Assembly (NCBI GenBank): GCA_032718475.1
Contig: JAUCBJ010003147.1
Location: 3,627-67,626, forward strand
Length of the DNA: 64,000 bases
Direction: 5' to 3'
Source of the DNA: Nemertoderma westbladi
Taxonomy: Eukaryota > Animalia > Xenacoelomorpha
The notes beneath the pieces were generated by a model. It ran no database searches. It saw only the letters and a list, made by a program, of their open reading frames with translations, and was not told where the DNA came from. A program made the translations under genes and the position numbers. Shown here piece after piece: positions 3,712-61,351 of the stretch (the first letter of the stretch is position 1; every line of letters starts with the position of its first letter).

Positions 3712-3915
3712 ACATTGTCAGTGCATACATATATGTGTTACATTAAGCCGTCCTGGTAGAACATTGTCAGTATACATACATATATGTGTTACATTAAGCC
3801 GTCCTGGTAGAACATTGTCAGTGCATACATATATGTGTTACATTAAGCCGTCCTGGTAGAACATTGTCAGTATACATACATATATGTGTTACATTAAGCC
3901 GTCCTGGTAGAACAT
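3712..3915. repeat. 49/51-bp minisatellite, ~4 units
   Basis: ACATTGTCAGTGCATACATATATGTGTTACATTAAGCCGTCCTGGTAGA in tandem; same family as 16483-17005. Confidence 0.95.
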
Positions 3916-12900: not shown

Positions 12901-15452
12901 ACTCACGACCAGTCAATAACACACTTAGTATATGAGCTCCGACAATTTCATAACGTACTCAGTTTTACTCACGACCAGTCAATAACACACTCAGTATATG
13001 AGCTCCGACCATTTAATAACGTACTCAGTTTTACTCACGACCTGTCAATAAATCACTTAGTATGAACCCCGACCATTTAATTACGTACTCAGTTTTACTC
13101 ACGACCAGTCAATAACACACTTAGTATGAACCCCGACCATTTAATTACGTACTCAGTTTTACTCACGACCAGTCAATAACACACTTAGTATGAACCCCGA
13201 CCATTTAATTACGTACTCAGTTTTACTCACGACCAGTCAATAACACACTTAGTATGAACCCCGACCATTTAATTACGTACTCAGTTTTACTCACGATCAG
13301 TCAATAACACACTTAGTATGAACCCCGACCATTTAATTACGTACTCAGTTTTACTCACGATCTGTCAATAACACACTTAGTATGAACCCCGACCATTTAA
13401 TAACGTACTCAGTTTTACTCACGACCAGTCAATAACACACTTAGTATATGAGCTCCGACCTTTTAATAACGTACTCAGTTTTACTCACGACCAGTCAATA
13501 ACACACTTAGTATATGAGCTCCGACCATTTAATAACGTACTTAGTTTTACTCACGACCAGTCAATAACACACTTAGTATATGAGCTGCGACCATTTAATA
13601 ACGGACTCAGTTTTACTCACGACCAGTCAATAACACACTTAGTATATGAGCTGCGACCATTTAATAACGGACTCAGTTTTACTCACGACCAGTCAATAAC
13701 ACACTTAGTATATGAGCTCCGACCTTTTAATAACGTACTCAGTTTTACTCACGACCAGTCAATAACACACTTAGTATATGAGCTCCGACCATTTAATAAC
13801 GTACTTAGTTTTACTCACGACCAGTCAATAACACACTTAGTATATGAGCTGCGACCATTTAATAACGGACTCAGTTTTACTCACGACCAGTCAATAACAC
13901 ACTTAGTATGAACCCCGACAATTTAATTACGTACTCAGTTTTACTCACGACCAGTCAATAACACACTTTGTATGAACCCCGACCATTTAATTACGTACTC
14001 AGTTTTACTCACGTCCAGTAAATAACACACTTAGTATGAACCCCGACCATTTCATTACGTACTCAGTTTTACTCACGACCAGTCAATAACACACTTAGTA
14101 TATGAGCTCCGACCATTTAATAACGTACTCAGTTTTACTCACGACCAGTCAATAACACACTTAGTATATGAGCTCCGACCATTTAATAACGTACTCAGTT
14201 TTACTCACGACCAGTCAATAACACACTTAGTATGAACCCCGACCATTTAATTACGTACTGAGTTTTACTCACGACCAGTCGATAACACACTTAGTATGAA
14301 CCCCGACCATTTAATAACGTACTCAGTTTTACTCACGACCTGTCAATAACACACTTAGTATATGAGCTCCGACCATTTAATTACGTACTCAGTTTTACTC
14401 ACGACCAGTCAATAACACACTTAGTATATGAGCTACGACCTTTTAATAACGTACTCAGTTTTACTCACGACCAGTCAATAACACACTTAGTATATGAGCT
14501 CCGACCATTTAATAACGTACTTAGTTTTACTCACGACCAGTCAATAACACACTTAGTATATGAGCTGCGACCATTTAATAACGGACTCAGTTTTACTCAC
14601 GACCAGTCAATAACACACTTAGTATGAACCCCGACAATTTAATTACGTACTCAGTTTTACTCACGACCAGTCAATAACACACTTTGTATGAACCCCGACC
14701 ATTTAATTACGTACTCAGTTTTACTCACGTCCAGTAAATAACACACTTAGTATGAACCCCGACCATTTCATTACGTACTCAGTTTTACTCACGACCAGTC
14801 AATAACACACTTAGTATATGAGCTCCGACCATTTAATAACGTACTCAGTTTTACTCACGACCAGTCAATAACACACTTAGTATATGAGCTCCGACCATTT
14901 AATAACGTACTCAGTTTTACTCACGACCAGTCAATAACACACTTAGTATGAACCCCGACCATTTAATTACGTACTCAGTTTTACTCAGGACCAGTCAATA
15001 ACACACTTAGTATGAACCCCGACCATTTAATAACGTACTCAGTTTTACTTACGACCAGTCAATAACACACTTAGTATATGAGCCCCGACCATTTAATAAC
15101 GTACTCAGTTTTACTCACGACCAGTCAATAACACACTTAGTATATGAGCTCCGACCATTTAATAACGTACTCAGTTTTACTCACGACCAGTCAATAACAC
15201 ACTTAGTATATGAGCTCCGACCATTTAATAACGTACTCAGTTTTACTCACGACCAGTCAATAACACACTTAGTATGAACCCCGACCATTTAATAACGTAC
15301 TCAGTTTTACTCACGACCAGTCAATAACACACTTAGTATATAAGCTCCGACCATTTAATAACGTACTCAGTTTTACTCACGACCAGTCAATAACACACTT
15401 AGTATATGAGCTCCGACAATTTCATAACGTACTCAGTTTTACTCACGACCAG
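3916..15452. repeat. 64/66-bp tandem satellite, array 2 (~175 units)
   Basis: Same A/B units as array 1. Ends at the same junction (CACGACCAG|CACCCCCACC) as array 1. Confidence 0.98.
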
Positions 15453-15945
15453 CACCCCCACCCTCATCCCACCTCTTTACCATGTGCCCCACCGCCCTCC
15501 GGCCCCCCACAACCCGCCTCCAACCCCACACCCATCCCCACCCCCCACCCCAACATAATTCCCACGCCCCCACCTCCACCCCTAACCCCACCCACAGGCC
15601 CCACCAGAACGCCTAACACTCATCCCCAGACCCCTACCGCACCCCCATCCCCAACCCAAACCCTAACCTCCCACCTCACACCCCCACCCCCATACCCATC
15701 CAGCACCCCAAACCTCATCCCACCTCTTTACCATGTGCCCTACCTCCCTCCGGCCCCCCACAACCCGCCTCCAACCCCACACACCATCCCCACCCCAACC
15801 CCCATCCCAACACAACCCCCACATCCACCCCCAACCCCACCCCCACCAAAACCCCCACCACCCATCCCCACACCCCTACCGCACCCCCAACCCAAACCCT
15901 AACGCCCCACCTCCCACCCCCACACCTATTCAGCACCCCCACCCT
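15453..15945. repeat. C-rich low-complexity block, second copy
   Basis: Homologous to 3036-3420 and somewhat longer. Confidence 0.9.
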
Positions 15946-16482
15946 GATCTCGTGGATGTGCTGACGGCTACTTCGACTGTATTTGGTGCACCTTAAATAA
16001 CATTTCTGTATTTATTTAATTTGTAAATTATTGAGGTTGTCCAATTATTTATGTTACCTTGTGATAGTACTTTGTGCTAAATGACCTAAAACCATCTTAT
16101 GCACGGTCTGGATCCAATCTCCAAATGCAATCACAGATAACCCTGTCCACCACTCTGTTGTTTAAAATCCTAACTATATGTTTTTACTCAATTTAAACTA
16201 ATCCATAAGCTAAATACTGACATTATGGCTATTTTGCAATTATATTTATTATTTAAAAATTGTTCTTAAAGTAATACTTTCGGAAATTTTGCTTTAATTT
16301 TGTTTTTATATTTGAATTTACTTTAATTGTTAATTTGTGTACTGTATTATTATTAAAATTTATTTTTAGGTCTACTTGCAATAGCTAAATGTGTTTTATC
16401 ATTAGTATAAGCAGTAGTTAACCTACCACTACCAGTATGAATATTTATTTACTTGTATTGGTATGTAATTTTGATATCGAAA

Positions 16483-17005
16483 ACATATATGTGTTACATT
16501 AAGACGTCCTGGTAGAACATTGTCAGTGCATACATATATGTGTTACATTAAGACGTCCTGGTAGAACATTGTCAGTGCATACATATATGTGTTACATTAA
16601 GACGTCCTGGTAGAACATTGTCAGTGCATACATATATGTTTTACATTAAGCCGTCCTGGTAGAACATTGTCAGTGCATACATATATGTGTTACATTAAGC
16701 CGTCCTGGTTGAACATTGTCAGTGCATACATATATGTTTTACATTAAGACGTCCTGGTAGAACATCGTCAGTGCATACATATATGTGTTACATTAAGACG
16801 TCCTGGTAGAACATTGTCAGTATACATACATATATGTGTTACATTAAGACGTCCTGGTAGAACATTGTCAGTGCATACATATATGTGTTACATTAAGCCG
16901 TCCTGGTAGAACATTGTCAGTGCATATATATATGTTTTATATTAAGACGTCCTGGTAGAACATTGTCAGTGCATACCATACATATATGTGTTACATTAAG
17001 ACGTC
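16483..17005. repeat. 49/51-bp minisatellite, ~10 units
   Basis: Tandem ACATTGTCAGTGCATACATATATGTGTTACATTAAGACGTCCTGGTAGA. Confidence 0.95.
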
Positions 17006-17260
17006 CACCCCACCCCACCCCACCCCACCCCACCCCACCCCACCCCACCCCACCCCACCCCACCCCACCCCACCCCACCCCACCCCACCCCACCCCACCC
17101 CACCCCACCCCACCCCACCCCACCCCACCCCACCCCACCCCACCCCACCCCACCCCACCCCACCCCACCCCACCCCCACCCCACCCCACCCCACCCCACC
17201 ACCCACCCCACCCCACCCCACACCCCCACCCCACCCCCCCCCCCCACCGCCACCCCCAAC
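17006..17260. repeat. (CCCCA)n microsatellite; (TGGGG)n on minus strand, G-quadruplex-capable
   Basis: More than 30 perfect CCCCA units, degenerating toward 17260. Confidence 0.97.
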
Positions 17261-17358
17261 ATCCGCACTCCGACGCACTGTTTTCTGTTATTTTCATTAT
17301 GTGATTGTGGGACCCTTAATTAAAAGAGCCACTCATAAATTAGGACTTACTGTGGGCG

Positions 17359-17976
17359 CTACACCACAGCAAGTAGAGCATGGCGGATAATGCTATAGAG
17401 TTTGGCATGGCCAAGGTCACTCAGGTGTATACCATCGGAGTGCAGCAAGGTTCCTCCCTGCACCCGATGGCATAATGCACCTTGCATTTTAATTAGAACG
17501 CCGTTCTGGGCGTGGTTGAACCACGCCGCCATCCGCATATTTGTGGCGACACGACGTGAATCATAATCGGGGTCCACAGACACACCTTTAGGGCGCATTA
17601 ACCTGGGGAACATTTGTGTCCATAACACACAGGAAGCACCATTGGAAGAATATTCCTGAATCATTGACTTTAATTTAGAGACAACGTAATCTGTGTCTCT
17701 CACACACAGATCGTTGCTTCCAAATAGAAGTACAATGAAACAAGGTTTATTGTCCCAATTGGCCATCACCTCCTGCGCGTTATGGGTGTCAAATATTCTC
17801 CCTGACCGCAGCTGAAAGGTAACTTTGGCAACTGTTGGACAGATACCAAAGTTACGATTGTGGCCGCGGTTGTTGTGGTCAAGGTACCGAAAGAGGTGGT
17901 CTGGGTGTGAAGACCCAACGATTATAATTTCATGTACATGATTGACAGTACAAATAGCTTGGACCGGTAGTGGCAT
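17359..17976 (-). CDS. SGNH/GDSL-type hydrolase (esterase), intronless, 205 aa
   Basis: Block I IIIVGSSH, block II SG, block III LLFGSNDL and block V HSDGIHLSDLG are in the correct order and spacing. First ATG is at 17976 (the ORF track starts at an upstream TTG). Confidence 0.88.
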   Translation of the reverse strand: MPLPVQAICTVNHVHEIIIVGSSHPDHLFRYLDHNNRGHNRNFGICPTVAKVTFQLRSGRIFDTHNAQEVMANWDNKPCFIVLLFGSNDLCVRDTDYVVSKLKSMIQEYSSNGASCVLWTQMFPRLMRPKGVSVDPDYDSRRVATNMRMAAWFNHAQNGVLIKMQGALCHRVQGGTLLHSDGIHLSDLGHAKLYSIIRHALLAVV

Positions 17977-18019
17977 AATATCGACTGAATAGAGCAAATA
18001 AGTGGAGAGAAATGGGTAA

Positions 18020-18420
18020 AGTGATGATTTAATATGATACAGCGTTCCGTTTATATAGAAAATTGTAAAGCATATTGATGGTGGAGACAGTTGTTAATTC
18101 AGCGTGTGTATGGTTACGGTGTACATTACGGTGATAATTAGTAATTGATATTGGTTTGTAAATGTGCTGCAATGCAGTCAGGCAGTTGTTTCTCTAAGGC
18201 ATAACCTTCCAATCCAATAATACCATATATGGTAATAATTCCCTTGGTTGCATCATGAAGCCTATTCATTGGTCGTAACATTGAGTAATTCTAACTGCAG
18301 CATACAGTGATATTCCTCTGACAATTTTGTTGGCGGGTTGTGATTGGCTTGCTGGCTGTAATTGGATATAGCTTCAGCCTTCAGCTATATAATTAAATAT
18401 TCAGTTGCCATACTTCATTC
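18020..18420. promoter_or_regulatory. Divergent Pol II promoter region
   Basis: Minus strand: TATATAAA at 18057-18050 with TCA about 30 nt downstream (~18027). Plus strand: TATATAA at 18386-18392 with Inr-like TCATTC at 18415-18420. Several CCAAT/ATTGG boxes lie between (~18209, 18267, 18343, 18361). Confidence 0.6.
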
Positions 18421-18524
18421 ATTATTGAATTTGTTATCTCGCAAATATTTGGCAAATTATACATAATTATTTGCGTATTTCTTCTCCGTATTTTTCGCTC
18501 TGTTTTAACTTTAACACTTCTAAG
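18417..18524 (+). other. Putative non-coding first exon of the multi-exon gene
   Basis: Follows the TATA/Inr pair and ends in a consensus donor AAG|GTAAGT (18525-18530). The next clear acceptor is at 20734, 8 nt before the ATG. Confidence 0.55.
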
Positions 18525-19782
18525 GTAAGTTTAATGTTACCCAAGGTGATTTGCACTTGCAGATTCAGATAAACCTGCTTGCGTGCTGGACTGTTCTGAT
18601 ACCTACTGCAGTACTGGTAGCCTTACATTACTGCATTATACATACAGCCATATGTTTTTGAGTGAAAAGGTCAATGCAGCAATGTTTGTGTTCCTGTCTG
18701 TGTAGACGTAGAACTGGTAGGCTAGTACAGTACCAAGCAAGGCAATTACCGGTACTGATCTACCGGAAACACAGTAAGCAAAACCAAAAACATGCCGATG
18801 TACATAGGCTACAGATATACATACGGATGTACTGATATAGGCCATACCTACTGCCTTGCCTACTGTACTAGTTTTCCCCTGTTGAAAGGTTTTATTTTCT
18901 GCGCCAAACGCTGTGTTATTTTAAGTGAATAAAATCCTTTGCCGGGTAGATGCAAAGCTTGTGCTGAGCGGACCTTTTGGCACCTTGTCCGGCGTAGCAC
19001 ATTTCTGCACCAGCTCCCGCCGCAAGTAGAAATGCTGCGCCAAAATAAGGCGTACAGACAGGCAGGTAGGCCTAACACTTTTCAATTGGCTGATAGGGGT
19101 ACAGGCCCAGTCTGACCGTCCCGTTACAAAGTTTTACACATACGGACTGACGGACGCAGAGCATGTAACGGTCTGCCGGTATTGTGCAATACTGCAATTC
19201 AGTTTAAATAGGCCTAGCCGTAATAAAATGTAAAGGTCTGCCGGTATCGTGCAATTCAGTTTAAATATCCCTAGGTAATAAAATCACAGTAATCTCTCAC
19301 ACGAACACGAAGCAGCCAAAGCAGAAAAACAATTCTTATTTTTATTTTTTATATCTGTAGGCAGATAGGCCTGGTGCCTGGATTGTTATTTTTTTTGTTT
19401 ATTCTTTGTAACATGCTCCATTCTGCCATTACAGGTTAGGTAGGTAGGCCGACCACTGTTACACTGCCTTGTCTTGTCTTGCCTACTATTTTTACTCATT
19501 CCTATAGGCAATAAGATAACTTCCATCTATTTTACATTACGCCTACTATTTTGTTGTGTTAAAACAGAACTGTTACCTGCCAGTCCTGCCTATACCTAGC
19601 ACTGTGGCACCCTAGCAAGCGGTCTAGCGGCAGAACGGCCAAATTATTACGAGTAGGCCTACAGATCTGCCGATAGGGCTACAGGTCAGCAGGTACCGGT
19701 ACGAACCGGTCCGGTACTTATATTTTATACCAAATTTATTAATAGGTACGGTATTCTACAGTTCTATGTACCGGTACCCGTA

Positions 19783-20419
19783 CCGGTGTATCAGAATTTT
19801 CACTCCCCATGTAAAATCATTTCATTTTTAAACTTCCCTAGTGCTGTAGTGTATTCTCATTCCCATGGTGTATTTTGTCTAGTGTATTTTATCCCCCTCA
19901 AGTGAAAACTCAACCCTGCATTTATATATTTTCGTATTAAGCAGATCCATCCCCAGTTAAATTGCTAAGGGCTACCGCTATTAATTTATGGATTATTAAT
20001 ATATTTAAAAAAAATTTCAATTTAAAATATGAACACCATAATCACCATATGCCATACGCATACACCCTCTACAGTACTTTACTATATACAAATCTACAGC
20101 GTGTTTTTTTCTGTCTACTACAGCACCCTATAGATGATAGGATACTGCGGTCATCTATTCATTTAACTGAAGGGTTAGAATTATATCGAATTTAAATTAC
20201 ATTGAAATTTAAAATATATATAATGCTGTAATGGGGTAGGAATAAGCTGAGGGGAGTTACATTTCACTAAAAAATCACCCGGAGTATTTTCATCCCCCGT
20301 TAAATATCCTAGTGAATTCTAACCGGGGGTGAAAACTGAAAGACAGCTAGACCTTGTGAATATTAACTGGGGGGTGAATTTTTAACTGTTTAGAGGGTGA
20401 TGATTTTCTGCTACACCTG
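19783..20419. mobile_element. MITE-like non-autonomous DNA transposon, 637 bp, TA-flanked, in the first intron
   Basis: Left end CCGGTGTATCAGAA; reverse complement of right end CAGGTGTAGCAGAA. TA on both flanks (19781-82, 20420-21). Subterminal AGTGWATT..CCCC-type repeats near both ends. Confidence 0.65.
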
Positions 20420-20742
20420 TACTGGTACTGGTAGCGTATTCTTTCTTCGTATTCGTACAGGTATATATATATTTATATATACCGGTATATATATTTGTGT
20501 CATTGTAATGCTCGAATGAATGTTTAGCCCTAATCGTTCCGAATTTTGGTGGTGTCTTCTGTTTTGTATGTAGCGGTACCGTTATTTTATTTTTATTTCT
20601 ATTTCGTTTTGCCTGTTCATTGCACATAATTAAATATATAGGGTCATAAATAGACATGAATGCGTAGGCCTATGCTGTTCTCTAGATCGGTTGTATTTTG
20701 TTAAATTATTTCTTTAATTTATTATTTTTTATAGATAACGTT

Positions 20743-20991
20743 ATGCCAAAACGAAAGCAATCTTTTGTTTGCTCGTACTGCCAAGGTCGCTGTGGCAAGA
20801 AGCGACACAACAAGGCAACCTGCCCTATGCGCATCGAACATCTGCGGAAAGGGATAGATGCCGCCAACATGGACGCCGGTAGAGAGTTGGAAATAGGTGG
20901 CGTTGGTGACCAACCCATCGGTATTCATGTAGAGATTCCGGGAAGCGCCGATGTCCATCAGACCGGCCGTTTACACGCGGTGGAAGCCAAT
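20743..20991 (+). CDS. Coding exon 1: MPKRKQSFV-CSYCQGRCGKKRHNKATC zinc knuckle
   Basis: Acceptor TTTTTTATAG at 20734, ATG at 20743, donor GTAAGT at 20992; 83 codons. Confidence 0.85.
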
Positions 20992-23900
20992 GTAAGTTTT
21001 ATTTAGGACTAACTTATATTAAGTATTATTCTAAACAGAGGCATGCTTAATACACTGTTTGTACGGCCTGCATACTGTATCTGGGAAACACACCATTATC
21101 TGCACACTATTTAACCCACTTATCTATACCAGGAGATCTGCCATCGTGAGTTACCCTCCTTGATAACCAATCTTGATTTGACTTTTAATCTTACCCACCA
21201 TTGTAACTCTATCTATATTGTCTTTTTACCAGCCATTGTCTACCTCCCTGTTTACCTTCCACCTTATTTGGTAAAGCTCCATTATAAATGTATATGTGCT
21301 GTGGGTCGGAGCTTTAAGGAGAAGGACTTCGATCCAATGTAACATAATAAATTGTGTAATGTTGTAGTATTATGTTGTGCTAATATACTAATTACTATAA
21401 ATTCTACGTACTCCTTATTGTTGCTGTGAAGTGCGGTCATTTCTTTAGTATAGTTTCGTTATAATATGTTATTGTTATTCTTATTTATAATTACAGAATA
21501 ACTATAAGTACCGGTATACTTATGGAACTATAACACCCCCCCTCCCTCACTTAAACGGAATATAAATTTTCTAAAATTAAAAAATACCTACCTATCTCTT
21601 TTTGTTGTTTGAAGTCAGTATAAGTATATCTCTCCGTGTCATTATTTTAAACTGCTACTTTCTAGGTGGAGTTGGATCGCGAGACTCCGGAGGTAGCGGT
21701 CGGACGCGAGACTCCCACTTCTCCATCCTACGCGGACGCGTTGAGATCGCCTCCACGGCCAAGTATCTGTTCTCCGCTGCAACCAACCCCGGTAGGACGC
21801 GGGACTCTCGACGTCACGGTGGGACGCCAGACTCCCCCTACATCTCCATCATACGCCGACGCGTTGAGATCGCCTCCACGGCGACGTACTACCCGTCCGC
21901 CAACACCACCAACGCCGGTTAGTTTAACATATATAAATATGTGGACCTACTTTGTCATTTTATATTTTGTTTCGGTGGTTTTCTAATACAATTACTGCAT
22001 AAAACGATTAGCTGAAGCAATATATACAGTATATACCAGTATATACCTCCCAACACTCTACCCAGAGTCTCTCTTGACTCTTCACCCCGACCCCTCCCCC
22101 ATTAATTCATTGAATCGTACATATTTGTTACATTTTTCTTCTATTTTTTCTCTTCTATCTATTATTTTTAAATTATTTAGGTCGCCAATTCAAAGAGTTG
22201 GTTCCGCCAGGTCGCGGACGATCTCAACCTGGATGTGGTCGACATACCAAACCACCCACTGGCGCAGTTATCTGCGGTTTCAACGGCTGCGGGCTGGGGG
22301 ATATCAGCCACCTATCTGAAACAACACGTGGCCGACTTCATGTTGCTGAGAACGGCCAAGTATTCGCGGCAGTGGCTCTTCCGTACGGGAGGGCCGCAAT
22401 CGTTCGCCGCCTACTTACTTTCATTGGCGTCGGATGATTGCCAGGTTAACGACATCAACCTGGAGGCCATAAGAGATATGGAGGAGATGGAGATCACGGT
22501 CCATCGGGCGCAGCACCGAAACGCGCCAAGTTGTTACTGCGCCCCCCCAAGGAGACGAGGTGGTGCCATCCATATCGGTGTGGACGGCGACCGATACGTC
22601 GCGTTTGTTTCGAGGTCTATCTCGACCCAGTCCGGCCGCGTGACCGAGTCGGAACCGATGGTTAGTTAATACTCTCCCTATAATGTTTCACTGTGTTTTT
22701 CAATAATGTTTGTGTTTATGTCACTGTTACATTAATGTTTGTATAAAAAGTATGTAACAAATACCATGAAATGTCTACAAAATAATTATATTTCCCGAAT
22801 AGACGATGTTACACGGCTATTAATTAATTGAGACGTCGTCATTATTTTTATAGCTTCATATTAATTCCAAATTATTGGTACCGACAATTAAAAACTCCAT
22901 TTCGTTAATAAATATACATTTAGAATTCCTTTAAATACATTTAATATACATGGAATATTAAAATGGAATATGGAATATTATAATACACATTGAATGTACC
23001 TTTAATTTCTTATTAAGTAAATATCAATTATCTCAAACTCCATATTTATAATTAATTGTTTAGGTTCTCCAGGAAGCTATTAAACCTATGGAGGACGTAC
23101 ATAATATCTCAGTCGCAACGGAGTTATTTACTACCGTTGTAGAATCTGATCTGCCCCGTAGATCCTATACGGTGTCCGGCCGTTTAGCTTCCAAACCTCC
23201 GACTGTAAGTGAATCTATATTATATATGTAATATCATATATTCATATATTATTTATTTAATTTGTTAAGAAATAATTTCTTAAATTGTCAGAGGTTAGCT
23301 AAAATGTCACCCTATTTATAATTTATATGCACTTCGACATTTTACAATAATTCCACACTATAATAATATATTTATATAATATTGATTATCGTTATTTTAG
23401 AGTTTTTTTTTGAATTCCCACTTGAACCACGGCGTTTATTTTGAATTGATGAGGAAAGTAACTTTATAATTTGTATTAATATATTAACCTACAGGAGCTG
23501 CATTTAGTTGATAATATTATACGATATAATTTAACCGATATAATTAATTATTTAATTGTTATTTCCACAGAGAACGTCGTCACGTAAAGGGAAGAAGAAA
23601 TTATCAGCTCTGCAAGACGCAACTGATATCAGAGGTGACGCTATGTCTGAATGTTCAGATGTAGGTAGTATCGGCTCTGTCGGTAGTATCGGTTCTATTC
23701 GTAGTGTCGGTACTGCCGGTAGTGTTGGTTCTGTTAGCAGTATGGCGTCTAACGAGTCAACCCGTAGGAGGAACGCCGCTCAAAAGTCCGGCTGTCCGTC
23801 TTCCCGTCCAGAAATCGTAAGTTTACTCAATAAATTATGTAATTAATTAATTATACAGAAACCTAATTAAATGATATTTTTTGTATAATGTATTTAATTA

Positions 23901-26900
23901 ATGGTAACTAACAGAACTCTTGTAAATATTTAATAATTTTTGTACAAATTAAATGACTGGAATACAATTGCATTTCGGTGCTTTAAAACTGAAAATATAA
24001 AATATTTTGTTTTAACTAATTCATATTTTCCCATTTAAATAAAGTTTATTTTATATAATTATTAATATTCCATACGAATGGTAACTTAATTATTTGTTTA
24101 AATTTTAAAGACTATTTTATTCCATAATTTTTAATTTATAGCGTTTATTTTAAAATATTTAATTTAACTAACAGTTAATTATATAATCAACATCAATTAT
24201 TATTTTTATTTTAGTTCACTAAACCAACTAAACGAAAGGGAGGCCAAACGTGTTCCTATTGTCAAGGACGTTGCGGGAAGAGGTCGCATAAGAAACAAAC
24301 CTGTATTATGAGACTCTTCCATGAGAGTAAGGATATATGGGTGGCAAATATGGATGCGGGCATTCTTCTGGAAGTAGTACAGGACGCTGAGATGGACGAA
24401 ATGGCCGCAGAGCCAGAGAGTACTGCTGATATGGACGCGGAATTCTTACAGGATATCGAACACGCGGAATTCTTACAGGATATCGAGATGTTCGATATCG
24501 AGGCCGCCGAGAGTGGCGCTGTCCAGACCGGCCGCGTATCTGATCCAGAACCGATGGTTAGTTAACTTAAATATATCCTAAGCTATATTTACTAAATAAC
24601 CCATAATATTGTCTATATTTCGGCGCACACGTACTGCATCCTATATACACGTTTGTACCATGTACAAATGTAGTGCGTGGATGTACACATGTAGTACATG
24701 GATGTACACATGTAGTACATGGATGTACACATGTACACATGCAGAATACACATGTGGTACATGGATGTACACTAGAGTTGCAACAGAGACCTGTTTTTCT
24801 TAATCCCGGTAAACCAGAGCCCTACCCAGAGAATTATTTTGAAAAATACCGGAGACCAGAGCCAGAGATCAGAGACTTGGCTTATTTTTGTTCTTCCATT
24901 TTGATTAGTCCCATAAAGCACAAACAGGTACATATGGATGGACTGAAACTATTTTTATATGGTTGAATTACAGTAACTCCAACCCATATGAACCCTTACC
25001 AATTGAAATAAAATAAGCGCACGTACAGTTTACTTAATTAATATTAATTTGGTTATTTGTTTATTAATTCGTTCTTATTTTGTCATTGTTAATAATATGT
25101 TACATAAATTTGTTTTGCGCCATAGGTACCGGTACTTTGTTAAGTAAAGGCACTTATTTTACAATTGTTCAAATCATATACATTTCAATAGACTATAAAC
25201 TTAGTAAATTACGAATACAGTGCACAGGTATGGTACTCTACTCGCCCCATATGCAAGCCTCGTTACGCTCGTTCTCTTCATTTGGTCTTCATATTATCTA
25301 TCCTACAACAAGTTGAACGGAGATCAGCCCTTTCTTTCACTTTTAAACATTATGGGTGCTCAAATTAAGCACCTTTATCCTTAAATAAGAACGACCTTTA
25401 GGTGCTAATTTAATTTAAAATTAAACGCACCTTAAATTAATAAATGTAAATATAATTATTATCGGTACATTTAGTTTGAGTCAGATTTAGAGTTAGATTA
25501 AAAACAGTGTAAAAGTGAATGTATAATTTTGTTGAAGCTGAGTATTAAAAATAAAAATTAAAGAAATTATTAATTGTAAAAAATTTGTGAAAAATAATCT
25601 TCATTTCACATTTTGTGTTGTACAGGATCTATTTTTAAATATCTATTTTTAATTTGTAAAATCACTGATCTCTGGGTAAAATGTCTGTTTTCAATACCCG
25701 GGAACCAGAGACCCATCCAGAGACTAAAAAATTACCCGGAGAATCCAGAGATCAGTGACAGGTCTCTGTTTCAACTCAATGTACACATGTGGTACATGGA
25801 TGTACACATGTGGTACATGGATGTACACATGTGGTACATGGATGTACACATGTGGTACATGGATGTACACATGTGGTACATGGATGTACACATGTGGTAC
25901 ATGGATGTACACATGTGGTACATGGATGTACACATGTGTTACATGGATGTACACATGCGGTACATGGATGTACACATGTAGTACATGGATGTACACATGT
26001 ACCGCACCCTATATACACGATTGTACCATGTACAAATGTAGTACGTGGATGTACACATGTAGTACATGGATGTACACATGTAGTACATGGATGTACACAT
26101 GTACACATGCAGAATACACATGTGGTACATGGATGTACACATGTGGTACATGGATGTACACATGTGGTACATGGATGTACACATGTGGTACATGGATGTA
26201 CACATGTGGTACATGGATGTACACATGTGGTACATGGATGTACACATGTGGTACATGGATGTACACATGTGGTACATGGATGTACACATGTGGTACATGG
26301 ATGTACACATGTGGTACATGGATGTACACCTGTGGTACATGGATGTATACATGTGGTACATGGATGTACACATGTGGTACATGGATGTACACATGTGGTA
26401 CATGGATGTACACATGTGGTACATGGATGTACACATGTGGTACATGGATGTACACATGTGGTACATGGATGTACACATGTGGTACATGGATGTACACATG
26501 TGGTACATGGTTGTACACATGTGGTACATGGTTGTACACATGTGGTACATGGATGTACACATGTGGTACATGGATGTACACATGTGGTACATGGATGTAC
26601 ACATGTGGTACATGATGTACACATGTGGTACATGGATGTACACATGTGGTACATAGATGTACACATGTGGTACATGGATGTACGCATGTGGTACATGGAT
26701 GTACACATGTGGTACATGGATGTACACATGTGGTACATGGATGTACACATGTGGTACATGGATGTACACATGTGGTACATGGATGTACACATGTGGTACA
26801 TGGATGTACACATGTGGTACATGGATGTACACATGTGGTACATGGATGTACACATGTGGTACATGGATGTACACATGTGGTACATGGATGTACACATGTG

Positions 26901-29900
26901 GTACATGGATGTACACATGTGGTACATGGATGTACACATGTGGTACATGGATGTACACATATGGTACATGGATGTACACATGTGGTACATGGATGGTACA
27001 TGGGTGTACACATGTAGTGCATGGATGTACACATGTAGTGCATGGATGTACACATGTAGTGCATGGATGTACACATGTAGTGCATGGATGTACACATGTA
27101 GTGCATGGATGTACACATGTAGTGCATGGATGTACACATGTAGTGCATGGATGTACACATGTAGTGCATGGATGTACACATGTAGTGCATGGATGTACAC
27201 ATGTAGTGCATGGATGTACACATGTAGTGCATGGATGTACACATGTAGTGCATGGATGTACACATGTAGTGCATGGATGTACACATGTAGTGCATGGATG
27301 TACACATGTAGTGCATGGATTTACACATGTAGTTCATGGATTTACACATGTAGTTCATGGATTTACACATGTAGTTCATGGATGTACACATGTAGTTCAT
27401 GGATGTACACATGTAGTTCATGGATGTACACATGTAGTGCATGGATGTACACATGTAGTGCATGGATGTACACATGTAGTGCATGGATGTACACATGTAG
27501 TGCATGGATGTACACATGTAGTGCATGGATGTACACATGTAGTGCATGGATGTACACATGTAGTGCATGGATGTACACATGTAGTGCATGGATGTACACA
27601 TGTAGTGCATGGATGTACACATGTAGTGCATGGATGTACACATGTAGTGCATGGATGTACACATGTAGTACACTGGATGTACACATGTAGTACACTGGAT
27701 GTACACATGTAGTACACTGGATGTACACATGTAGTACACTGGATGTACACATGTAGTACACTGGATGTACACATGTAGTACACGTACACATGTAGTACAG
27801 TACACGTACACATGGAGTACAGTACACGTACACATGGAGTACAGTACACGTACACATGGAGTACAGTACACGTACACATGGAGTACAGTACACGTACACA
27901 TGGAGTACAGTACACGTACACATGGAGTACACTACACGTACACATGTAGTTCACTACACGTACACATGTAGTACACTGGATGTACACATGTAGTACACTG
28001 GATGTACACATGTAGTACACTGGATGTACACATGTAGTACACTGGATGTACACATGTAGTACACTGGAAGTACACATGTAGTACACTGGATGTACACATG
28101 TAGTACACTGGATGTACACATGTAGTACACTGGATGTACACATGTAGTACACTGGATGTACACATGTAGTACACTGGATGTACACATGTAGTACATGGGT
28201 GTACACATGTAGTACATGGGTGTACACATGTAGTACATGGGTGTACACATGTAGTACATGGATGCACACATGTAGTACATGGATGCACACATGTAGTACA
28301 TGGATGCACACATGTAGTACATGGATTTACACATGTAGTACAGTAATACACGTACACATGGAGTACAGTAATACACGTACACATGGAGTACACTACACGT
28401 ACACATGTAGTACACTACACGTACACATGTAGTACACTGGATGTACACATGTAGTACACTGGATGTACACATGTAGTACACTGGATGTACACATGTAGTA
28501 CACTACACGTACACATGTAGTACACTACACGTACACATGTAGTACAGTACACGTACACATGTAGTACAGTACACGTACACATGTAGTACAGTACACGTAC
28601 ACATGGAGTACAGTACACGTACACATGGAGTACAGTACACGTACACATGGAGTACAATAATACACGTACACATGGAGTACAGTAATACACGTACACATGG
28701 AGTACACTACACGTACACATGGAGTACACTACACGTACACATGTAGTACACTACACGTACACATGTAGTACACTGGATGTACACATGTAGTACACTGGAT
28801 GTACACATGTAGTACACTGGATGTACACATGTACAGTACACGTACACATGGAGTACAGTACACGTACACATGGAGTACAGTACACGTACACATGGAGTAC
28901 AGTACACGTACACATGGAGTACAGTACACGTACACATGGAGTACAGTACACGTACACATGGAGTACAGTACACGTACACATGGAGTACACTACACGTACA
29001 CATGTAGTACACTACACGTACACATGTAGTACACTACACGTACACATGTAGTACACTACACGTACACATGTAGTACAGTACACGTACACATGTAGTACAG
29101 TACACGTACACATGTAGTACAGTACACGTACACATGGAGTACAGTACACGTACACATGGAGTACAGTAATACACGTACACATGGAGTACAGTAATACACG
29201 TACACATGGAGTACACTACACGTACACATGTAGTACACTGGATGTACACATGTAGTACATGGGTGTACACATGTAGTACATGGATGCACACATGTAGTAC
29301 ATGGATGCACACATGTAGTACATGGATGCACACATGTAGTACATGGATTTACACATGTAGTACATGGATTTACACATGTAGTACATGGATTTACACATGT
29401 AGTACATGGATTTACACATGTAGTACATGGATTTACACATGTAGTACATGGATTTACACATGTAGTACATGGATTTACACATGTAGTACATGGATTTACA
29501 CATGTAGTATTTCCGGTAGCTATCATAGTATAATTAATTGTAATTAACACTTAATTTTTTTTCCTTTTAGGATACGGATACAAACACTCCAATTCGTTTA
29601 GATTCATTAAGAACACGTATCCTTTTGGGACCCACCTGCATGCTCCCTAGTGTCTCACCATTAGTCGTCCCTTCATTCTCCCCTAGAATGGAGACTCCTG
29701 CCTTTTCACCATTGGCTAGATGTACTCCCACGTTTTCCCCACTCGTGGATGTTTCTCCTGGTGGCTACTCTGATCAGTCGCAGTCGACGCCGGGCATTCT
29801 ATCACCGTTTTTGAGGATGTCTGCAGTAGAGACGCCCCCTCGCTCACAATCCCGTCGACCAAAGCCACTGAACATTCGTCCACGGCGGGAGCGAGGGGGT

Positions 29901-30735
29901 CGTATAATCGGGGTGAGTTGATATAATTTTGTAGTAAAGCTTTTGGTTGAGTCGAATGAATTAAAAGTATTTTGTATAGTTGTTTGTTTTTCTATGGTTT
30001 TAGTGAATGTTGATTAAGATGCTTATTGATATATATAACGAAATTGTTTCTATTTCAATTTAATGCTTTCTAAGTCTGTTATTTATTTATTTATACTGAA
30101 ATTATTGTATTTTTCTGTATATTCTATAAATAATAATCACCCAATAATTACAGTTAATGAAACACAGCTAATTCAATAAGCATATTTCTATAGTCAATGA
30201 AACACACAGATTGGTGATTGCAGTATAGCTGTTTTTGTTGTGGCATTATTCGTTATTTCAGAGGTACTTACAGTTTGATTTATGTTTATTTTAGGATCCA
30301 ACTGGTTCAGGAACCTGTACCCCTTTCTCCACCCCAACTATGAGTCCTCGCACAGATTCTCCCGTGTTTCGGTTTGACGATGACTCAATTCGCCGGCTTA
30401 ATTCTAAGTCCGGGAAGGATACTCCTCCCCGATTTCTATCACGGCGACTATCTCCCTATGTTGTTCTATCACGTAAGGATATTGTATCAAGTCCAACACC
30501 GGATGTTGGACTAAACGCAGTACCATCTCCACCCGACGTGTTACCCAGCACAGAAATTGTACCTGGAGTGTTACCAACCGCGCCTCGTGCAACACGACAC
30601 ACACCCAGTGCGGCACCACAATCTAGTTCTAGAACACCACACACATCGACCTCAACACCCCGCCCGTCGGGTGCAACAACACAGCCTTCAAATGCAAATC
30701 CGCAGCCTTCAACATCGGGCGGGGTCCCGTCAATG
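20743..30735 (+). CDS. Spliced gene, at least 831 aa and 3'-incomplete: join(20743..20991,21666..21917,22181..22660,23064..23204,[23401..23457],23571..23816,24215..24556,29571..29912,30295..30735); two zinc knuckles, pseudo-OTU domain, S/P/T-rich regions
   Basis: GC-richer open exons sit in AT-rich introns. Each has a pyrimidine-rich YAG acceptor and a GTAAGT/GTTAGT/GTGAGT donor. Every coding exon length is a multiple of 3 and the joined frame has no stop. Confidence 0.85.
21666..21917 (+). CDS. Coding exon 2: Pro/Ser-rich, duplicated TSPSYADALRSPPR motif
   Basis: Acceptor TTTCTAG, donor GTTAGT at 21918; 84 codons. Confidence 0.82.
22181..22660 (+). CDS. Coding exon 3: OTU-like cysteine protease fold lacking catalytic residues
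   Basis: Acceptor TATTTAG, donor GTTAGT; 160 codons. LNLDVVDIPNHPLAQLSAVS...LKQHVADFM...FAAYL..L..D...DINLEAI...ITV...IHIG..GDRY follows the OTU pattern. Confidence 0.75.
23064..23204 (+). CDS. Coding exon 4 (47 codons, VLQEAIKP...SGRLASKPPT)
   Basis: Acceptor TGTTTAG, donor GTAAGT at 23205; open in phase 0. Confidence 0.8.
23401..23457 (+). CDS. Possible 19-codon mini-exon (SFFLNSHLNHGVYFELMRK)
   Basis: Acceptor TATTTTAG, weaker donor GTAACT; open in phase 0. Confidence 0.4.
23571..23816 (+). CDS. Coding exon 5: basic patch plus (V/I)GS tripeptide repeats
   Basis: Acceptor TTTCCACAG, donor GTAAGT at 23817; 82 codons. Confidence 0.82.
24215..24556 (+). CDS. Coding exon 6: second zinc knuckle CSYCQGRCGKRSHKKQTC plus acidic region
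   Basis: Acceptor TTTATTTTAG, donor GTTAGT at 24557; 114 codons; paralogous to coding exon 1. Confidence 0.85.
24629..24772. repeat. Start of the 21-bp intronic satellite, separated from the main array by a MITE
   Basis: GTACACATGTAGTACATGGAT units; this block recurs at ~25999-26140. Confidence 0.85.
24773..25778. mobile_element. hAT-like MITE, ~1.0 kb, with 8-bp TSD
   Basis: Left TIR TAGAGTTGCAACAGAGACCTGT; right end ACAGGTCTCTGTTTCAACTCA. ATGTACAC flanks both sides (24765-72, 25779-86). Multiple subterminal CCAGAG motifs at both ends; no transposase. Confidence 0.8.
25779..29508. repeat. 21/22-bp intronic minisatellite with sequential variant domains
   Basis: GTACACATGTGGTACATGGAT, then GTACACATGTAGTGCATGGAT, then 22-bp GTACACATGTAGTACACTGGAT / GTACACATGGAGTACAGTACAC, then TTACACATGTAGTACATGGAT. 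Confidence 0.98.
29571..29912 (+). CDS. Coding exon 7: S/T-P rich (repeated FSP motifs)
   Basis: Acceptor TTCCTTTTAG, donor GTGAGT at 29913; 114 codons. Confidence 0.83.
30295..30735 (+). CDS. Coding exon 8: S/P/T-rich, ends in an open donor with no in-phase downstream exon found
   Basis: Acceptor TTTATTTTAG, donor GTGAGT at 30736; 147 codons. Confidence 0.83.
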
Positions 30736-30767
30736 GTGAGTTTTATGCTAATTTAATTAATCATATT

Positions 30768-31836
30768 GTGAATCAATTGTCACGTAATTATGTAAGTGAA
30801 TCAATTCCCATGTAATTATGTAAGTGAATCAATTGCCACGTTATTATGTAAGTGAATCAATTGTCGCGCAATTATGTAAGTGATTCAATTGTCGCGCAAT
30901 TATGTAAGTGAATCAATTGTCACGTAATTATGTGAGATAATGAATTGTCATGTAATTATGTTAGTGAATAAATTGTCATGTAATTATGTAAATGAATAAA
31001 TTGTCGCGCAATTATGTAAGTGAATCAATTGTCACGTAATTATGTAAATGAATCAATTGTCATGTAATTATGTAAGTGAATCAATTGTCACGTAATTATG
31101 TGAGATAATGAATTGTCATGTAATTATGTTAGTGAATAAATTGTCATGTAATTATGTAAATGAATCAATTGTCGCGCAATTATGTAAGTGAATCAATTGT
31201 CGCGCAATTATGTAAGTGCATTTGTCACGTTATTATGTAAGTGAAACAGTGAATCAATTGTCACGTAATTATGTAAGTGAATCAATTGTTACGTTATGTA
31301 AGTGAATCAATTGTCACGCAATTATGTAAGTGAATCAATTGTCACGTAATTATGTAAGTGAATCAATTGTCACGTTATAATGTAAGTGAATCAATTGTCA
31401 CGTAATTATGTGAGATAATGAATTGTCATGTAATTATGTTAGTGAATAAATTGTCATGTAATTATGTAAATGAATCAATTGTCGCGCAATTATGTAAGTG
31501 AATCAATTGTCGCGCAATTATGTAAGTGCATTTGTCACGTTATTATGTAAGTGAAACAGTGAATCAATTGTCACGTAATTATGTAAGTGAATCAATTGTT
31601 ACGTTATGTAAGTGAATCAATTGTCACGCAATTATGTAAGTGAATCAATTGTCACGTAATTATGTAAGTGAATCAATTGTCACGTAATTATGTAAGTGAA
31701 TCAATTGTCACGTTATTATGTAAGTGAATCAATTGTCACGTTATAATGTAAGTGAATCAATTGTCGCGCAATTATGTAAGTGAATCAATTGTCACGTAAT
31801 TATGTGAGATAATGAATTGTCATGTAATTATGTAAG
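30768..31836. repeat. 28-bp minisatellite (~38 units) with a 310-bp higher-order duplication
   Basis: Unit GTGAATCAATTGTCACGTAATTATGTAA; the variant GTGAAACAGTGAATC occurs at 31241 and 31551. Confidence 0.96.
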
Positions 31837-33422
31837 ACAATCAAGTCTCACACATAGATCTCGTTTTACGTAGAATTTGTAATACCCAAAGACCTTTTGG
31901 AGGAAAGTTATTTATTGGCTGTGGAGATCACAAACAGCTAGAGCCAGTTGAGGGTAGAGTTGTCTGGCTTAGTACACACTTTTTAACAACCTTTAAAGTA
32001 GCTGTTTGTAGACATTTTGTCCGTAGTGCCAACGATCAAGAATTACAGCTTGTTATAAATATCTTGCGGTCAACAAATCCATCTCCAAATGAAATTGATC
32101 AAATGATTAATATCCTAAAGAGGCGTTGCAATTTTGTTGATACCTGGGAAGATGTCCCAGATGATGTGTTAAAGGTTGTAGGCACTAGGGCTGGTGAGCA
32201 GGAGGTATTAAAGAAATATCTGGACCGGCACCGAAATGAGTACGGAACTGTAATTATTGATAGTATTGATCAGGTCAATAACGGTAATCCAGCGGAGGAG
32301 CAATCTTGGAAAGAAACGCAAGCTACAAACATTATTACCTCAATAACAAAGTCTTGTCGTGAACCAAGACAATTGGTGTTATTTCTTAATCAGATTCTCC
32401 GATTTACATTTAATCGTTATTCTGTGCAACCACAATTTTCAAATGGTCAATTACTCTTTGTTACAAAGGTACCCACTGATAGAACAGATAGATTACATGG
32501 GGCTATTGTCCCTAAAGGTTGCCGCCGTGTCAATTCAGAGGTTGCACAAACCTGGCCTATCGTTAAACTAGAGCAGCGTAAAATGCCCCCTCCTACTACT
32601 GTTGGTTATGGTAGGAATACTATCATGGGGAGGCGAATACAATATCCTGTACGTTATTTTGGAGCGAGCACTATTCATGGTGTTCAAGGTCAAGGTACAC
32701 CTTCTATAGCAACCCAGATAACTATGGACAAACAGAGTACATATAAAATTTGGCTTAAAACCCAAGTAACAACTTTAATCTCAAGAGTATATTTCCTTGA
32801 CCAATTTACGTTTGTTGGGCCCACGGATGAAACTTTTAATTGTGTTAGGGTTTTAGCTAATAGAAAATCTCCAAATCAAGAGTATGTAGATCAGTTACTG
32901 CATAGTCTCAATATTCTTGATGGGCCACCACAGGAGCCAATAGCACTTGCTGACCATCCTTTCTTGCCATACTATATCGACATTCCTTCATCCCATACGG
33001 GATTTGTATATATGTTGATTAGCGTCAGATTTCCTAATGTTGTTACTTATATAGGGCAAACTGAGGAACTGAAAGCTCGGTTAAATGCTCACCAGAATAA
33101 GACAGGGTCTGAATTCACAAGAAATCCAGCCTACCATCCCTGGGCGCTTTATGCATTTGTAAGTGGCTTTCCTGGTGAAGCAAAGAGTGCACTCAATACT
33201 GATTACCGTAAGGAATTTGAGACTCAATGGCACCATGATACTGATACCAACAGAAGTGGTGGTAATACAACTCATAGTAGAGAATATATCTATAACATTG
33301 GGATTGAGATTGTACGTCAGTATAACACTGATCATTTATATCATGATGAAAATGAAGATCCTCAGAAATTTGAATTGATAATGGTTCAATGTCAACGTAT
33401 AAATGTTATTGCCAATGAATAA
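31836..33422 (+). CDS. 5'-truncated PIF1-family (SF1B) helicase fused to an SLX1-like GIY-YIG endonuclease; 528-aa stop-to-stop frame
   Basis: The frame is open upstream of the ORF-track start: HIDLVLRRICNTQRPFGGKLFIGCGDHKQLEPV (motif III), HFVRSAND (IV), RRIQYPVRYFGASTIHGVQGQ (V, ~32631), QVTTLISRV (VI, ~32763). From 33000: GFVYMLIS..TYIGQT..LKARLNAH..GSEFT..PWAL..VSGF..FETQW. Walker A/B absent. Confidence 0.88.
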   Translation, partial: DNQVSHIDLVLRRICNTQRPFGGKLFIGCGDHKQLEPVEGRVVWLSTHFLTTFKVAVCRHFVRSANDQELQLVINILRSTNPSPNEIDQMINILKRRCNFVDTWEDVPDDVLKVVGTRAGEQEVLKKYLDRHRNEYGTVIIDSIDQVNNGNPAEEQSWKETQATNIITSITKSCREPRQLVLFLNQILRFTFNRYSVQPQFSNGQLLFVTKVPTDRTDRLHGAIVPKGCRRVNSEVAQTWPIVKLEQRKMPPPTTVGYGRNTIMGRRIQYPVRYFGASTIHGVQGQGTPSIATQITMDKQSTYKIWLKTQVTTLISRVYFLDQFTFVGPTDETFNCVRVLANRKSPNQEYVDQLLHSLNILDGPPQEPIALADHPFLPYYIDIPSSHTGFVYMLISVRFPNVVTYIGQTEELKARLNAHQNKTGSEFTRNPAYHPWALYAFVSGFPGEAKSALNTDYRKEFETQWHHDTDTNRSGGNTTHSREYIYNIGIEIVRQYNTDHLYHDENEDPQKFELIMVQCQRINVIANE

Positions 33423-36400
33423 GTTATTGACTTTCTGAATATTATTAGGCAATACTTTTGACCATTTTTATCAATTTATATCTCGTAAATTATAGCCATT
33501 ACTTATATAGGGATACGCATTTAATATTGTGAGTAATCTTAGGAAAACATTTGCGTATCACAACATATAATATAGATATTCTATTGTAAAAAAAATAAAG
33601 AATATCATTATATTCATATATATTATTATAGCAATGTCAATATATATTATCATAGCTTAAGATAACACTTAAAGCTACTTATAATAGCTTAAGATAACAC
33701 TTAAAGCTACTTATAATAATCTGGGAATATATCACTCTTAATAATTGATACTAAGAAAGGCTATCAATAACATAGATATTCTATTATGAAAAACTGCTTT
33801 AAAGTATATGAAAAGCTTAACAAAGAATATCATATATTATGAATATATATTATTATAGCAATGTGAATATATATTATCATAGCTTAAGTGTTATATGGCT
33901 CAAATTCAATTTTTATCAAATTTTACTTTTGATACTTTTTATACATACTTTTTATACAATTCCATATTTTAAGTAATGATTTATCAGCTGATGAAGTTTT
34001 GAACATTTTTAACCAATGGCAAGTGATGATTTATGCTAAAGTGAAGCACTATATCCTAGTGAACATTACTTTACTGCAGAAAAGCCCTTGGGCAATATTT
34101 TACTGCAGAAAGGCCCTATATGTCTCTAAATTTATTCTTCTGAATAATTTCAATGGCTCCTGAATAATTTCAATTTTTACTTAATTATTGAATAATATGT
34201 GCTTAATTTACTTCTATTTTTGAACCTTATAACACTTAAAGCTACTTACATTATAAACTGGGTAGATATCACTCTTAAATGATACTAAGAAAGGCTATCA
34301 ATACATTAGTATCTAACTTTAACTGTACCCAGTTAATACTCAGTCATTAGTTGAGACTGGCATTAGTGTCTAAGCCAATTTAAAATATTCATAATAATAA
34401 GAATATAGCTTAGACTAAAATATGAGTATGCCACAATGTTTATATACTTATAATCTATAATCTAATAATAATAAATAATATAACTAATAGAAAATACTAT
34501 AAAATAATTTATATATATTATATATCATATAGTTTTTAAAATTAAATTATGATTTTTAAACTTTAATTTAATGTAATTTTTTTATATAGTAAAAAATTTG
34601 AATATATTTTATACCTATTTATTTTATATAAAATTTGAATATATTTTATACTTCTATTTTTATTTTTCTATATTTTTATTTAATATATTTATAATTTTAT
34701 ACTTATAATTTTATATTTATTTATATATTTATTTATATATTTGATATATATTGTTTTCTATAACGAATGAAAAATTTAAACAAATTGTTAAATGAATATA
34801 TTCTTTTGATAAATTGCTGTTTAATTTGTTATGACAATTTGGTGCAATATTGTCTTACAGCCATTCATTTCATCCATCTGTGCTCTAAGTAACCCTATAA
34901 ACGGCTCTGCTGAACAGTATAGATTACAGTAGAAAATCATATCATCTTCACTCACTTTCCCTAAAGTTAGCTGAGTCATATCATTGGCTGTTAAAATGAT
35001 TGTTTGCATCACATTGAATGGTGACATACTAAAACAGCATTATATATATTCTAATAATAATTCAATTTGTTAAAATTATCTTGATTCACTATATAAACAA
35101 TCTATATATCAAATATAATAAATAAATAATACTATTCATTATTTATATTTTATTTTAGTAATAATTAAATTATGAAATAATAATTATAATAATTAATTAA
35201 AAAACAAATAATTATATAACTAAATAAATTAGATATTGTGGCATACTTTATCCTGGTTTCTATTGCCAGAGTTTTATTGCCAGTTTACTTCACAGTAAAC
35301 TGAAATATTATACTGTAGCACAGTATAATATTATATTGGTGAGGATAGGTATGGCTAATGGGGAGATGGGAGGCCATACTCATAACAATATGTTATGATA
35401 TAATAAAGTGCTATAGTATAATATAATTTGGTGAGGATAGGTATGGCTAAAGGGGAGATGGGAGGCCATACACTCATAACAAATTGTTATGATTATATTC
35501 GATTTCATAAATTGACGAAATCATATATAAAACACCCTAAAATGCTTAGATGTAACTTATAGAGAACCCAATAATTGAGAGTTTCTCCATTGCGGTACTG
35601 AAATGTATCCATATCATTGATCTACATATTAGGGTGTTTTAATTTTAAACTTAAACTTTTATTCAAAATTGTTAGTATATCTTTAACTATTAATTAATTT
35701 ACAGTACTATAATTATATAATGGTTTTCTATAGAATAAGGTAGTATTTTATAAACTTTTATATTTTTTTCTTGACTCATTTTCAGCTTGTCGATCATCAT
35801 CAATTATTAGCAATAACTGCCATATTATCATTCTTCATCATCATCATCAATCATATGTGCTTCATCATAACTAATCTGAAGTAATCTTATATCGCAAATA
35901 ATAAGTTCTAATTAAAATATTTTGGAGTAGTATATAGTTTGTATATTATTTTGCAAAGCCTGAAATAGCCATTCTTATAAATTGACATTTCAAAACTATT
36001 TTGTGATATTGACCATTCTCAAAAATGGTCTTCAATTATACAAATATAATATTGACAAAATTATATATGAAACACCCTAAAATGCTTAGATATAACTTAA
36101 TAAATGGAATAGTTTGAGTCAAAAACTCAACAGGAACCCAACAATAATTGAGAGTTCCAGGACTGAAAAGTCCTTATCTAATTTCCATTGTGGTACTGAA
36201 ATGTATCCATATCATTGATCTAACATATTGGGATGTTTTAATTTTTTATCAAAAATTTTAAGTATATCTTGAACTATTAATTAATTTATAATATTATATT
36301 TACTTCATGGGTTTTTATAGCATAAGGTAGTATTTTATAAACTTATATATTTTTTTTGAACTTATTATTATTAGGTTGTCCATTATCATCAATTATTACC

Positions 36401-61200: not shown

Positions 61201-61351
61201 TTCAGTTGTAGACGTTTTATGCCCTATTTGGAGTCCTCCTTGGAGATTTTGATAAAACTCCTAATTTTATTAATAAAATCTGACACGGTTTGAGATCCTT
61301 GTTAAATTTAATAAATGGTAGTTTCATTGCAGCATTGCTTTAGAAACAACT

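Follow-up and report, generated by a model that had tools for sequence, protein, structure and literature searches.

Current schemes divide Helitrons between two groups, and the way in which a target site is opened or repaired is still an open question. Here we describe a Helitron-like locus in the genome of Nemertoderma westbladi (Xenacoelomorpha; assembly GCA_032718475.1). The window analyzed is a 64,000-nucleotide (nt) stretch of contig JAUCBJ010003147.1 (positions 3,627 to 67,626, forward strand), and its positions 17359 to 33422 hold three coding units surrounded by satellites, as a sequence-only reading had proposed: an intact SGNH/GDSL esterase gene, a divergent spliced gene of eight exons, and an open frame in which part of a PIF1 helicase is fused to a GIY-YIG nuclease. 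The window is eukaryotic, satellite-rich DNA; past about 34.3 kb, on its right side, GC falls to 22% and CpGs are few.

The third unit is the 3′ remnant of a transposase (31854..33422, plus strand), which starts just past motif II of a Pif1 helicase and continues into an SLX1-like GIY-YIG nuclease. The open frame spans 31836 to 33422 (Pfam GIY-YIG, E = 1.5e-8; PIF1, E = 5e-4), and its first 18 bases are satellite, with coding homology beginning at 31854. It has neither a start codon nor a Walker A motif. Its predicted structure (predicted local distance difference test, pLDDT, 91) superposes on Pif1 with a Z of 22.4 (root mean square deviation, rmsd, 3.7; 300 aligned) and on SLX1 with a Z of 11.8 (rmsd 3.0; 121 aligned). 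The SLX1-like fold lies in residues 380-521 (Z 11.8 and 11.5 for PDB 7CQ3 and 6SEI) and includes the GIY-YIG catalytic residues; 50 of 56 family-conserved residues are kept, among them the GIY-YIG Tyr, Gly, Arg, His, and Glu. SLX1 itself carries a Cys/His-rich RING. The window nuclease, in contrast, is fused to a transposon helicase, its frame ends without such a RING, and its activity is predicted.

A HMMER search with the PIF1-GIY-YIG protein recovered 843 clusters at a threshold of E ≤ 1e-3, of which 177 also pass E ≤ 1e-30, and many of the best 150 clusters are proteins of 2,200 to 3,600 amino acids (aa) that match the window at their C terminus. A word-indexed search had returned no homologue among longer proteins and one match of near length; since the full HMMER search recovered a large family, the word index is insensitive. 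The family set consists of 155 stored proteins, 49 of which are at least 1,650 aa long. Pfam was run on 37 of these 49 (cut-offs of 1e-3 and 1e-4 in two batches) and found PIF1 in 31, GIY-YIG in 30, Helitron_like_N in 13, and OTU and Ulp1 in one each; AP endonuclease, DUF6570, and Exo_endo_phos were each found in 0 of the 37. The proposal that GIY-YIG occupies the position of the Helentron AP endonuclease in a Helitron-related lineage is thus borne out by the relatives. In an alignment of 48 long relatives (P0155 was omitted as a cluster-mate of P0032), the HUH Glu and both His residues and the Walker A Lys are present in every row, and the two catalytic Tyr residues in 47 and 46 rows. Intact members encode one protein of 2,200 to 3,600 residues with an HUH Rep, a Pif1 helicase, and an SLX1-like GIY-YIG nuclease in that order, and by their motifs and predicted folds they are RepHel transposases with a fixed C-terminal GIY-YIG.

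The Rep assignment was also examined by structure. A model of the Rep and spacer of relative P0007 (pLDDT 83) had a single Foldseek match below 1e-3, the Helraiser transposase (7LCC, E = 8e-8), on which it superposed with a Z of 15.4 (rmsd 4.8, 463 aligned); the next match had a Z of 6.5, and other HUH Reps were lower. An hhalign comparison of the family with the Helitron1 protein L150 aligned the helicase alone, so the case for a homologous Rep is built on motifs, Pfam, and fold.

In the protein atlas searched, the nearest cluster (0.93) has 114 members, 98% of them with GIY-YIG, and is eukaryotic; diatoms are the commonest among the five members of known phylum. Among the matches listed, at least 2 of 62 metagenome loci are family fragments (L005 and L006, both short pieces), and the matches listed for 62 prokaryote loci are to the helicase only. 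No family member was found in IMG/VR viral contigs, plasmids, or phages, where plasmid and phage matches are again helicase-only. In one of the metagenome pieces, an unassigned open reading frame (ORF) of at least 509 codons lies downstream of the family member (L006:2880-4406), in the same orientation. Some relatives extend past the nuclease: P0065 and P0032/P0155 have a Ulp1 protease or an OTU-like motif added after GIY-YIG, so that ubiquitin-like proteases turn up repeatedly at either terminus of the transposase.

Of the 2308 positions of the family profile, only 1775-2284 find a match in the window, which makes the remnant the last ~510 residues of a family core of ~2,300. Missing from the window copy, at a 28-bp satellite (30768..31853), are the Rep and the first half of the helicase, which together span about 1,775 profile positions. 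We therefore read the locus as a copy of a giant Helitron-like transposon that carries an internal deletion and is non-autonomous, and we give this reading a probability of about three in four. Because it has neither Rep nor Walker A, such a copy could move only in trans, with the transposase of intact copies.

Contigs of four other sequencing runs (X1 to X4; three samples under one species label) were compared with positions 29480-34440. Upstream of 31854, an X1 contig continues for 906 nt that differ from the window, and downstream of 30761 an X3 contig does so for 2,242 nt; where the window has satellite, other copies thus contain a minimum of about 3 kb. In X2, the loose end at 31854 (two contigs, agreement 0.67) is in frame and in register with the motif II region of the relatives, a reading that assumes that the printed letters adjoin the break. 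Exon 8 of the spliced gene and the helicase thus both extend, in other samples, into non-satellite sequence toward each other. Diverged variants that match the window patchily coexist in X1, X2, and X3, with a common noncoding tail from about 33500, and we infer that copies are dispersed in the genome.

The locus works like a Helitron, and it belongs to the Helitron-like superfamily through its relatives. As in Helitron1 (the first group of Helitron-like elements, HLE1; Helraiser 7LCC and L150), an HUH Y2 Rep stands upstream of a Pif1 helicase in a single ORF. The family differs from Helitron1 in its Rep motif 2, in a conserved Cys/His-rich N terminus of about 800 aa, in the C-terminal GIY-YIG, and in having a helicase clade of its own. 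The pattern search matched 38 of 49 proteins, most of which have a motif 2 of the form E[FY]Q-x(3-8)-GN-x-[PS]HxH and not of the Helitron1 type E[FY]QxRGxPHxH; EFQxRGxPHxH is seen in L150 and L160, and the same motif is characteristic of Helentrons. Spacings are longer than in L150, from HUH to Tyr (165-207 versus 132) and from HUH to Walker A (624-779 versus 490), and Helitron_like_N scores are about 1e-3 to 1e-8, compared with 3e-38 for L150. The Rep comparison set comprised two Helitron1 proteins and otherwise small, apparently prokaryotic-type Reps. Because the scores against current Helitron models are weak, the family is probably underannotated in repeat libraries. L150:3832-8859 and L160 are canonical Helitron1 RepHel genes on contigs filed as giant-virus metagenome-assembled genomes in IMG/VR.

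In a helicase tree (433 columns, 40 rows, LG+G4), a branch with support of 100/99 separates 27 family rows, the window protein among them, from two Helitron1 sequences and 11 microbial or viral Pif1s; neither side holds a Helentron (the second group, HLE2) or a cellular eukaryotic Pif1. Sampling is thin, and the tree came with a long-branch warning. L064, which was 26% filled, had been dropped beforehand, together with P0104 and P0140, for which motif extraction failed, and near-duplicates among the microbial Pif1s. By its motif 2 and this tree the family is not Helitron1, and with no AP endonuclease in the 37 proteins scanned it is not a Helentron in the strict sense; as a clade, it may belong with HLE2.

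An alternative hypothesis, compatible with the deletion and in our view unlikely, is that the family is a sub-lineage of Helentron/HLE2 in which the AP endonuclease was swapped for GIY-YIG. Such a swap has a possible precedent in HelenSM92, an HLE2 family of Sphagnum; the HELIANO paper gives GIY-YIG for this one Sphagnum HLE2 family, also mentions some unclassified Helitron-like elements (this family may overlap with either), and names OTU and Ulp1 among the domains captured by Helitron-like elements (PMC11417382). Helentrons also resemble the family in combining a giant RepHel and a C-terminal nuclease with an OTU accessory domain (C-terminal nuclease and OTU ORFs, PMC4067079) and internal tandem repeats, and the helicase tree, being without HLE2 sequences, leaves room for this hypothesis. 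Against it stand the motif 2 of the family, which is not EFQxRGxPHxH; the Helitron_like_N scores given above, compared with 1.6e-19 (CDD) quoted for a mite Helentron; and the Pfam counts, in which AP endonuclease, DUF6570, and Exo_endo_phos are missing and GIY-YIG is lineage-wide rather than a single-family capture. GIY-YIG is likewise unnamed in the stable-domain passage of the HELIANO paper (PMC11417382). Subterminal repeats like those of HLE2 were not found between 15453-20742 and the tail of the locus, a comparison in which the true left end may be missing. We found no paper describing this lineage in a search whose reach ended short of Repbase, Dfam, and most subscription papers; the nearest description was that of the moss HLE2 family with GIY-YIG.

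Upstream of the 28-bp satellite lies the spliced gene, which has eight exons on the plus strand between 20743 and 30735 and a stop-free product of 831 codons. All seven introns are GT-AG and all are phase 0. Exon boundaries were chosen by eye from ORFs, and a tentative extra exon near 23400 was excluded. Exon 1 (20743..20991) holds the ATG and the first Cys/His zinc-finger-like motif; exon 2 (21666..21917) has an internal repeat and is rich in Ser, Pro, and Arg; exon 3 (22181..22660) is OTU-like, with the catalytic Cys and His replaced; exon 4 spans 23064..23204; exon 5 (23571..23816) is Ser/Gly-rich; and exon 6 (24215..24556) holds the second zinc-finger-like motif, paralogous to that of exon 1. 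Intron 6 contains a 21/22-bp satellite (24626..29509) and is followed by exon 7 (29571..29912; Ser/Pro-rich) and exon 8 (30295..30735; Ser/Pro/Thr-rich). In the product, these exons yield a pair of paralogous Cys/His fingers, an OTU-like part, and extended runs rich in Ser and Pro. The zinc knuckles noticed earlier were read directly as two CxxCxxxC...H..xC fingers in exons 1 and 6, which no Pfam or NCBIfam model matched. The OTU-like exon noticed with them is a putative pseudo-OTU: exon 3 had no Pfam match and scored 3.1 bits against a profile of eight family OTUs, a weak score that 9 of 1,000 shuffles equaled or exceeded, albeit in register.

Intron 7 (29913-30294, GT..AG) is precisely skipped in three X4 contigs, which use the exon 7 donor and the exon 8 acceptor. 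This reflects either spliced RNA or an intronless copy (X4 is guessed to be DNA); the exon 7 and 8 edges are confirmed in both cases. Exon 8 can alternatively read through to a stop at 30754-30756, and because X4 contigs also extend beyond the exon 8 donor, the spliced gene may end at this stop of its own. The 21-bp satellite of intron 6 is broken at 24773-25778 by 1 kb of inserted DNA that has inverted repeats at its termini and a perfect 8-bp target duplication, and that resembles a non-autonomous hAT-type element.

The SGNH/GDSL esterase gene (17359..17976, minus strand) is intronless, running from an ATG at 17976 to a stop at 17359, and encodes 205 aa. Pfam Lipase_GDSL matches it above cut-off (E = 5e-6), the catalytic blocks GSS, GSND, and DGIH can be read directly and are all intact, and its composition differs from that of the right flank. 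The search for SGNH homologues found none, which is weak evidence given the insensitivity of the word index. The divergent intergenic region (17977..20742) separates it from the spliced gene and holds an insert of ~0.6 kb (about 19783-20417) bounded by imperfect terminal inverted repeats; the insert has GGGGTGAAAA-like internal motifs and a 13-mer in common with the tail at 34051. In fish, too, an SGNH hydrolase gene lies beside a Helitron coding region, as described for texim (PMC4021074). There, texim is multi-exon and the Helitron lies 3′ of it or in its last intron, whereas the window gene is intronless and divergent, and its linkage is putative. We postulate that the spliced zinc-finger/pseudo-OTU gene is probably the N-terminal or upstream accessory ORF of the element and the divergent esterase a passenger gene. 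Four relatives (P0041, P0022, P0015, and P0030) have an N-terminal zinc finger and/or OTU in the same ORF as the transposase; they lie near the window protein in a quick tree, a placement that the careful tree did not resolve.

Several observations weigh against reading the locus as a single deleted element. No contig of the four runs bridges exon 8 and the helicase, so that their membership in one element rests on position and on the architecture of the relatives. In X3, depth is 40-55 over exons 7 and 8 and 166 over the helicase frame, where contig depth does not equal copy number. None of the relatives is matched significantly by exon 1, 3, or 6, an SGNH fusion is absent among the 155 stored proteins, and the genomic context of relatives consists of two short metagenome pieces, in one of which (L006) no SGNH gene lies downstream. 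The GIY-YIG Arg is kept in 36 of 48 relatives, and because some of them carry a degenerate nuclease, the nuclease may be dispensable. Neither terminus of the element is defined. Helentron/HLE2 elements have subterminal or asymmetric inverted repeats and a 3′ palindrome and insert at TT; no convincing inverted 11- to 13-mer match was found between 15453-20742 and the tail, and the true left end may lie elsewhere.

The missing bridge and homology, together with the other small inserts nested at the locus, would also suit a repeat graveyard in which the three units are unrelated neighbors, only PIF1-GIY-YIG being Helitron-like and the other two genes deriving from other elements (with CR1/L2-type or Terminon-type esterases) or from the host. 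GDSL esterases do occur in Terminons and long terminal repeat elements (PMC6431247) and in CR1 elements (PMC4021074). Terminons and Penelope-like elements are marked by a reverse transcriptase and hammerhead motifs; no reverse transcriptase was detected in the 12 frames scanned and no Rfam match in the window, a search that covers the retained part of the element. We regard chance neighborhood as quite improbable: strand and order match those of the relatives that join zinc finger or OTU to RepHel, exon 8 and the helicase continue toward each other through non-satellite sequence in other samples, and the block has 37-47% GC outside the 28-bp satellite versus 22% in the right flank. Fish Helitrons, moreover, carry SGNH genes (PMC4021074).

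A Rep-less element class, which the sequence-only reading had kept as its alternative, or a host or domesticated PIF1-SLX1 fusion gene would agree with the lack of a Rep in the window and with a frame that is still open and keeps its conserved residues. The Rep-less class is refuted by the HUH Rep in 48 of 48 long relatives, the window copy being a deleted one, and a frame with satellite at its start, without start codon or Walker A, and with diverged variants within single runs makes a host gene very improbable as well. Pif1 and GIY-YIG both occur in large DNA viruses and Polinton-like viruses (search listing; Atlas rows under 0.9), but a viral remnant is hardly credible given spliceosomal introns, a Rep region that folds like Helraiser, and no family member in IMG/VR, phages, or plasmids.

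For an intact copy of the internally deleted element, the mechanism would follow Helitron biology, whose rolling-circle steps are outlined in PMC6431247. The Rep would nick the element end through a phosphotyrosine, and the helicase would peel off one strand, which would then circularize and be inserted elsewhere. Given where GIY-YIG sits and that its fold is SLX1-like, we speculate that it cuts branched or flap DNA at the target or when replication ends, the job with which the AP endonuclease is assumed to help in Helentrons.

A wider reading, which we put forward tentatively, is that the family is a third major and widespread Helitron-like group outside HLE1 and HLE2, with a giant transposase whose fused SLX1-type branched-DNA nuclease would integrate or resolve the rolling-circle intermediate. 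At this locus, it would be represented by a recently amplified ~20-kb three-gene element, with the spliced zinc-finger/pseudo-OTU gene and the divergent esterase, that gives rise to satellites within the introns and deletion scars it carries. In a deep lineage, a fixed nuclease of the SLX1 kind would amount to a second, independent nuclease fusion and would offer a direct biochemical test of the role of the extra nuclease. The locus adds eukaryotic genomic context (introns, accessory genes, and internal satellites) to the family, of which a broken copy like this one is not the best example.

Downstream of the nuclease, an AT-rich 3′ tail (33423..34303) consists of two ~200-bp units, the second with an inverted-repeat-bounded insert. 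Many diverged contigs from each of the four runs match the core (33962-34127) of this insert (33884-34239; 340 bp; 21-bp inverted repeats that end in TTAA), so it is probably a high-copy repeat in its own right. At 34245, contigs of both X1 and X3 stop, and 34294-34440 is uncovered in all four runs, which by itself proves nothing. A candidate right end of the element lies between 34245 and 34303; Helitron1 ends are marked by 5′ TC and by 3′ CTRR with a subterminal hairpin, and the tail and the sequence just beyond it contain only weak hairpins (about -4 to -6 kcal/mol).

Rfam and NCBIfam scans returned nothing significant. To the left of the SGNH gene, a C-rich block, a unique spacer, a 49-bp array, and a CCACC array (15453..17256) may or may not be the left arm of the element. 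Beyond them, a 15-kb CpG-rich 66-bp satellite occupies 1-15452 (CpG observed/expected, 1.46) in an otherwise CpG-poor host and may represent either the left arm of the element or the site of its insertion. At 3036-3915 and 15453-17006, within or next to this satellite, lie two inserts that have in common a C-rich block (96% identity) and one 49-bp array and that differ in their unique middles; the former includes a minus-strand frame of 142 codons for which no Pfam match was found. More arrays, with units of 49, 42, 243, and about 480 bp, are present at 42000-46100 and 54000-64000, and the units of about 480 bp contain a recurring minus-strand frame of 107-108 codons.

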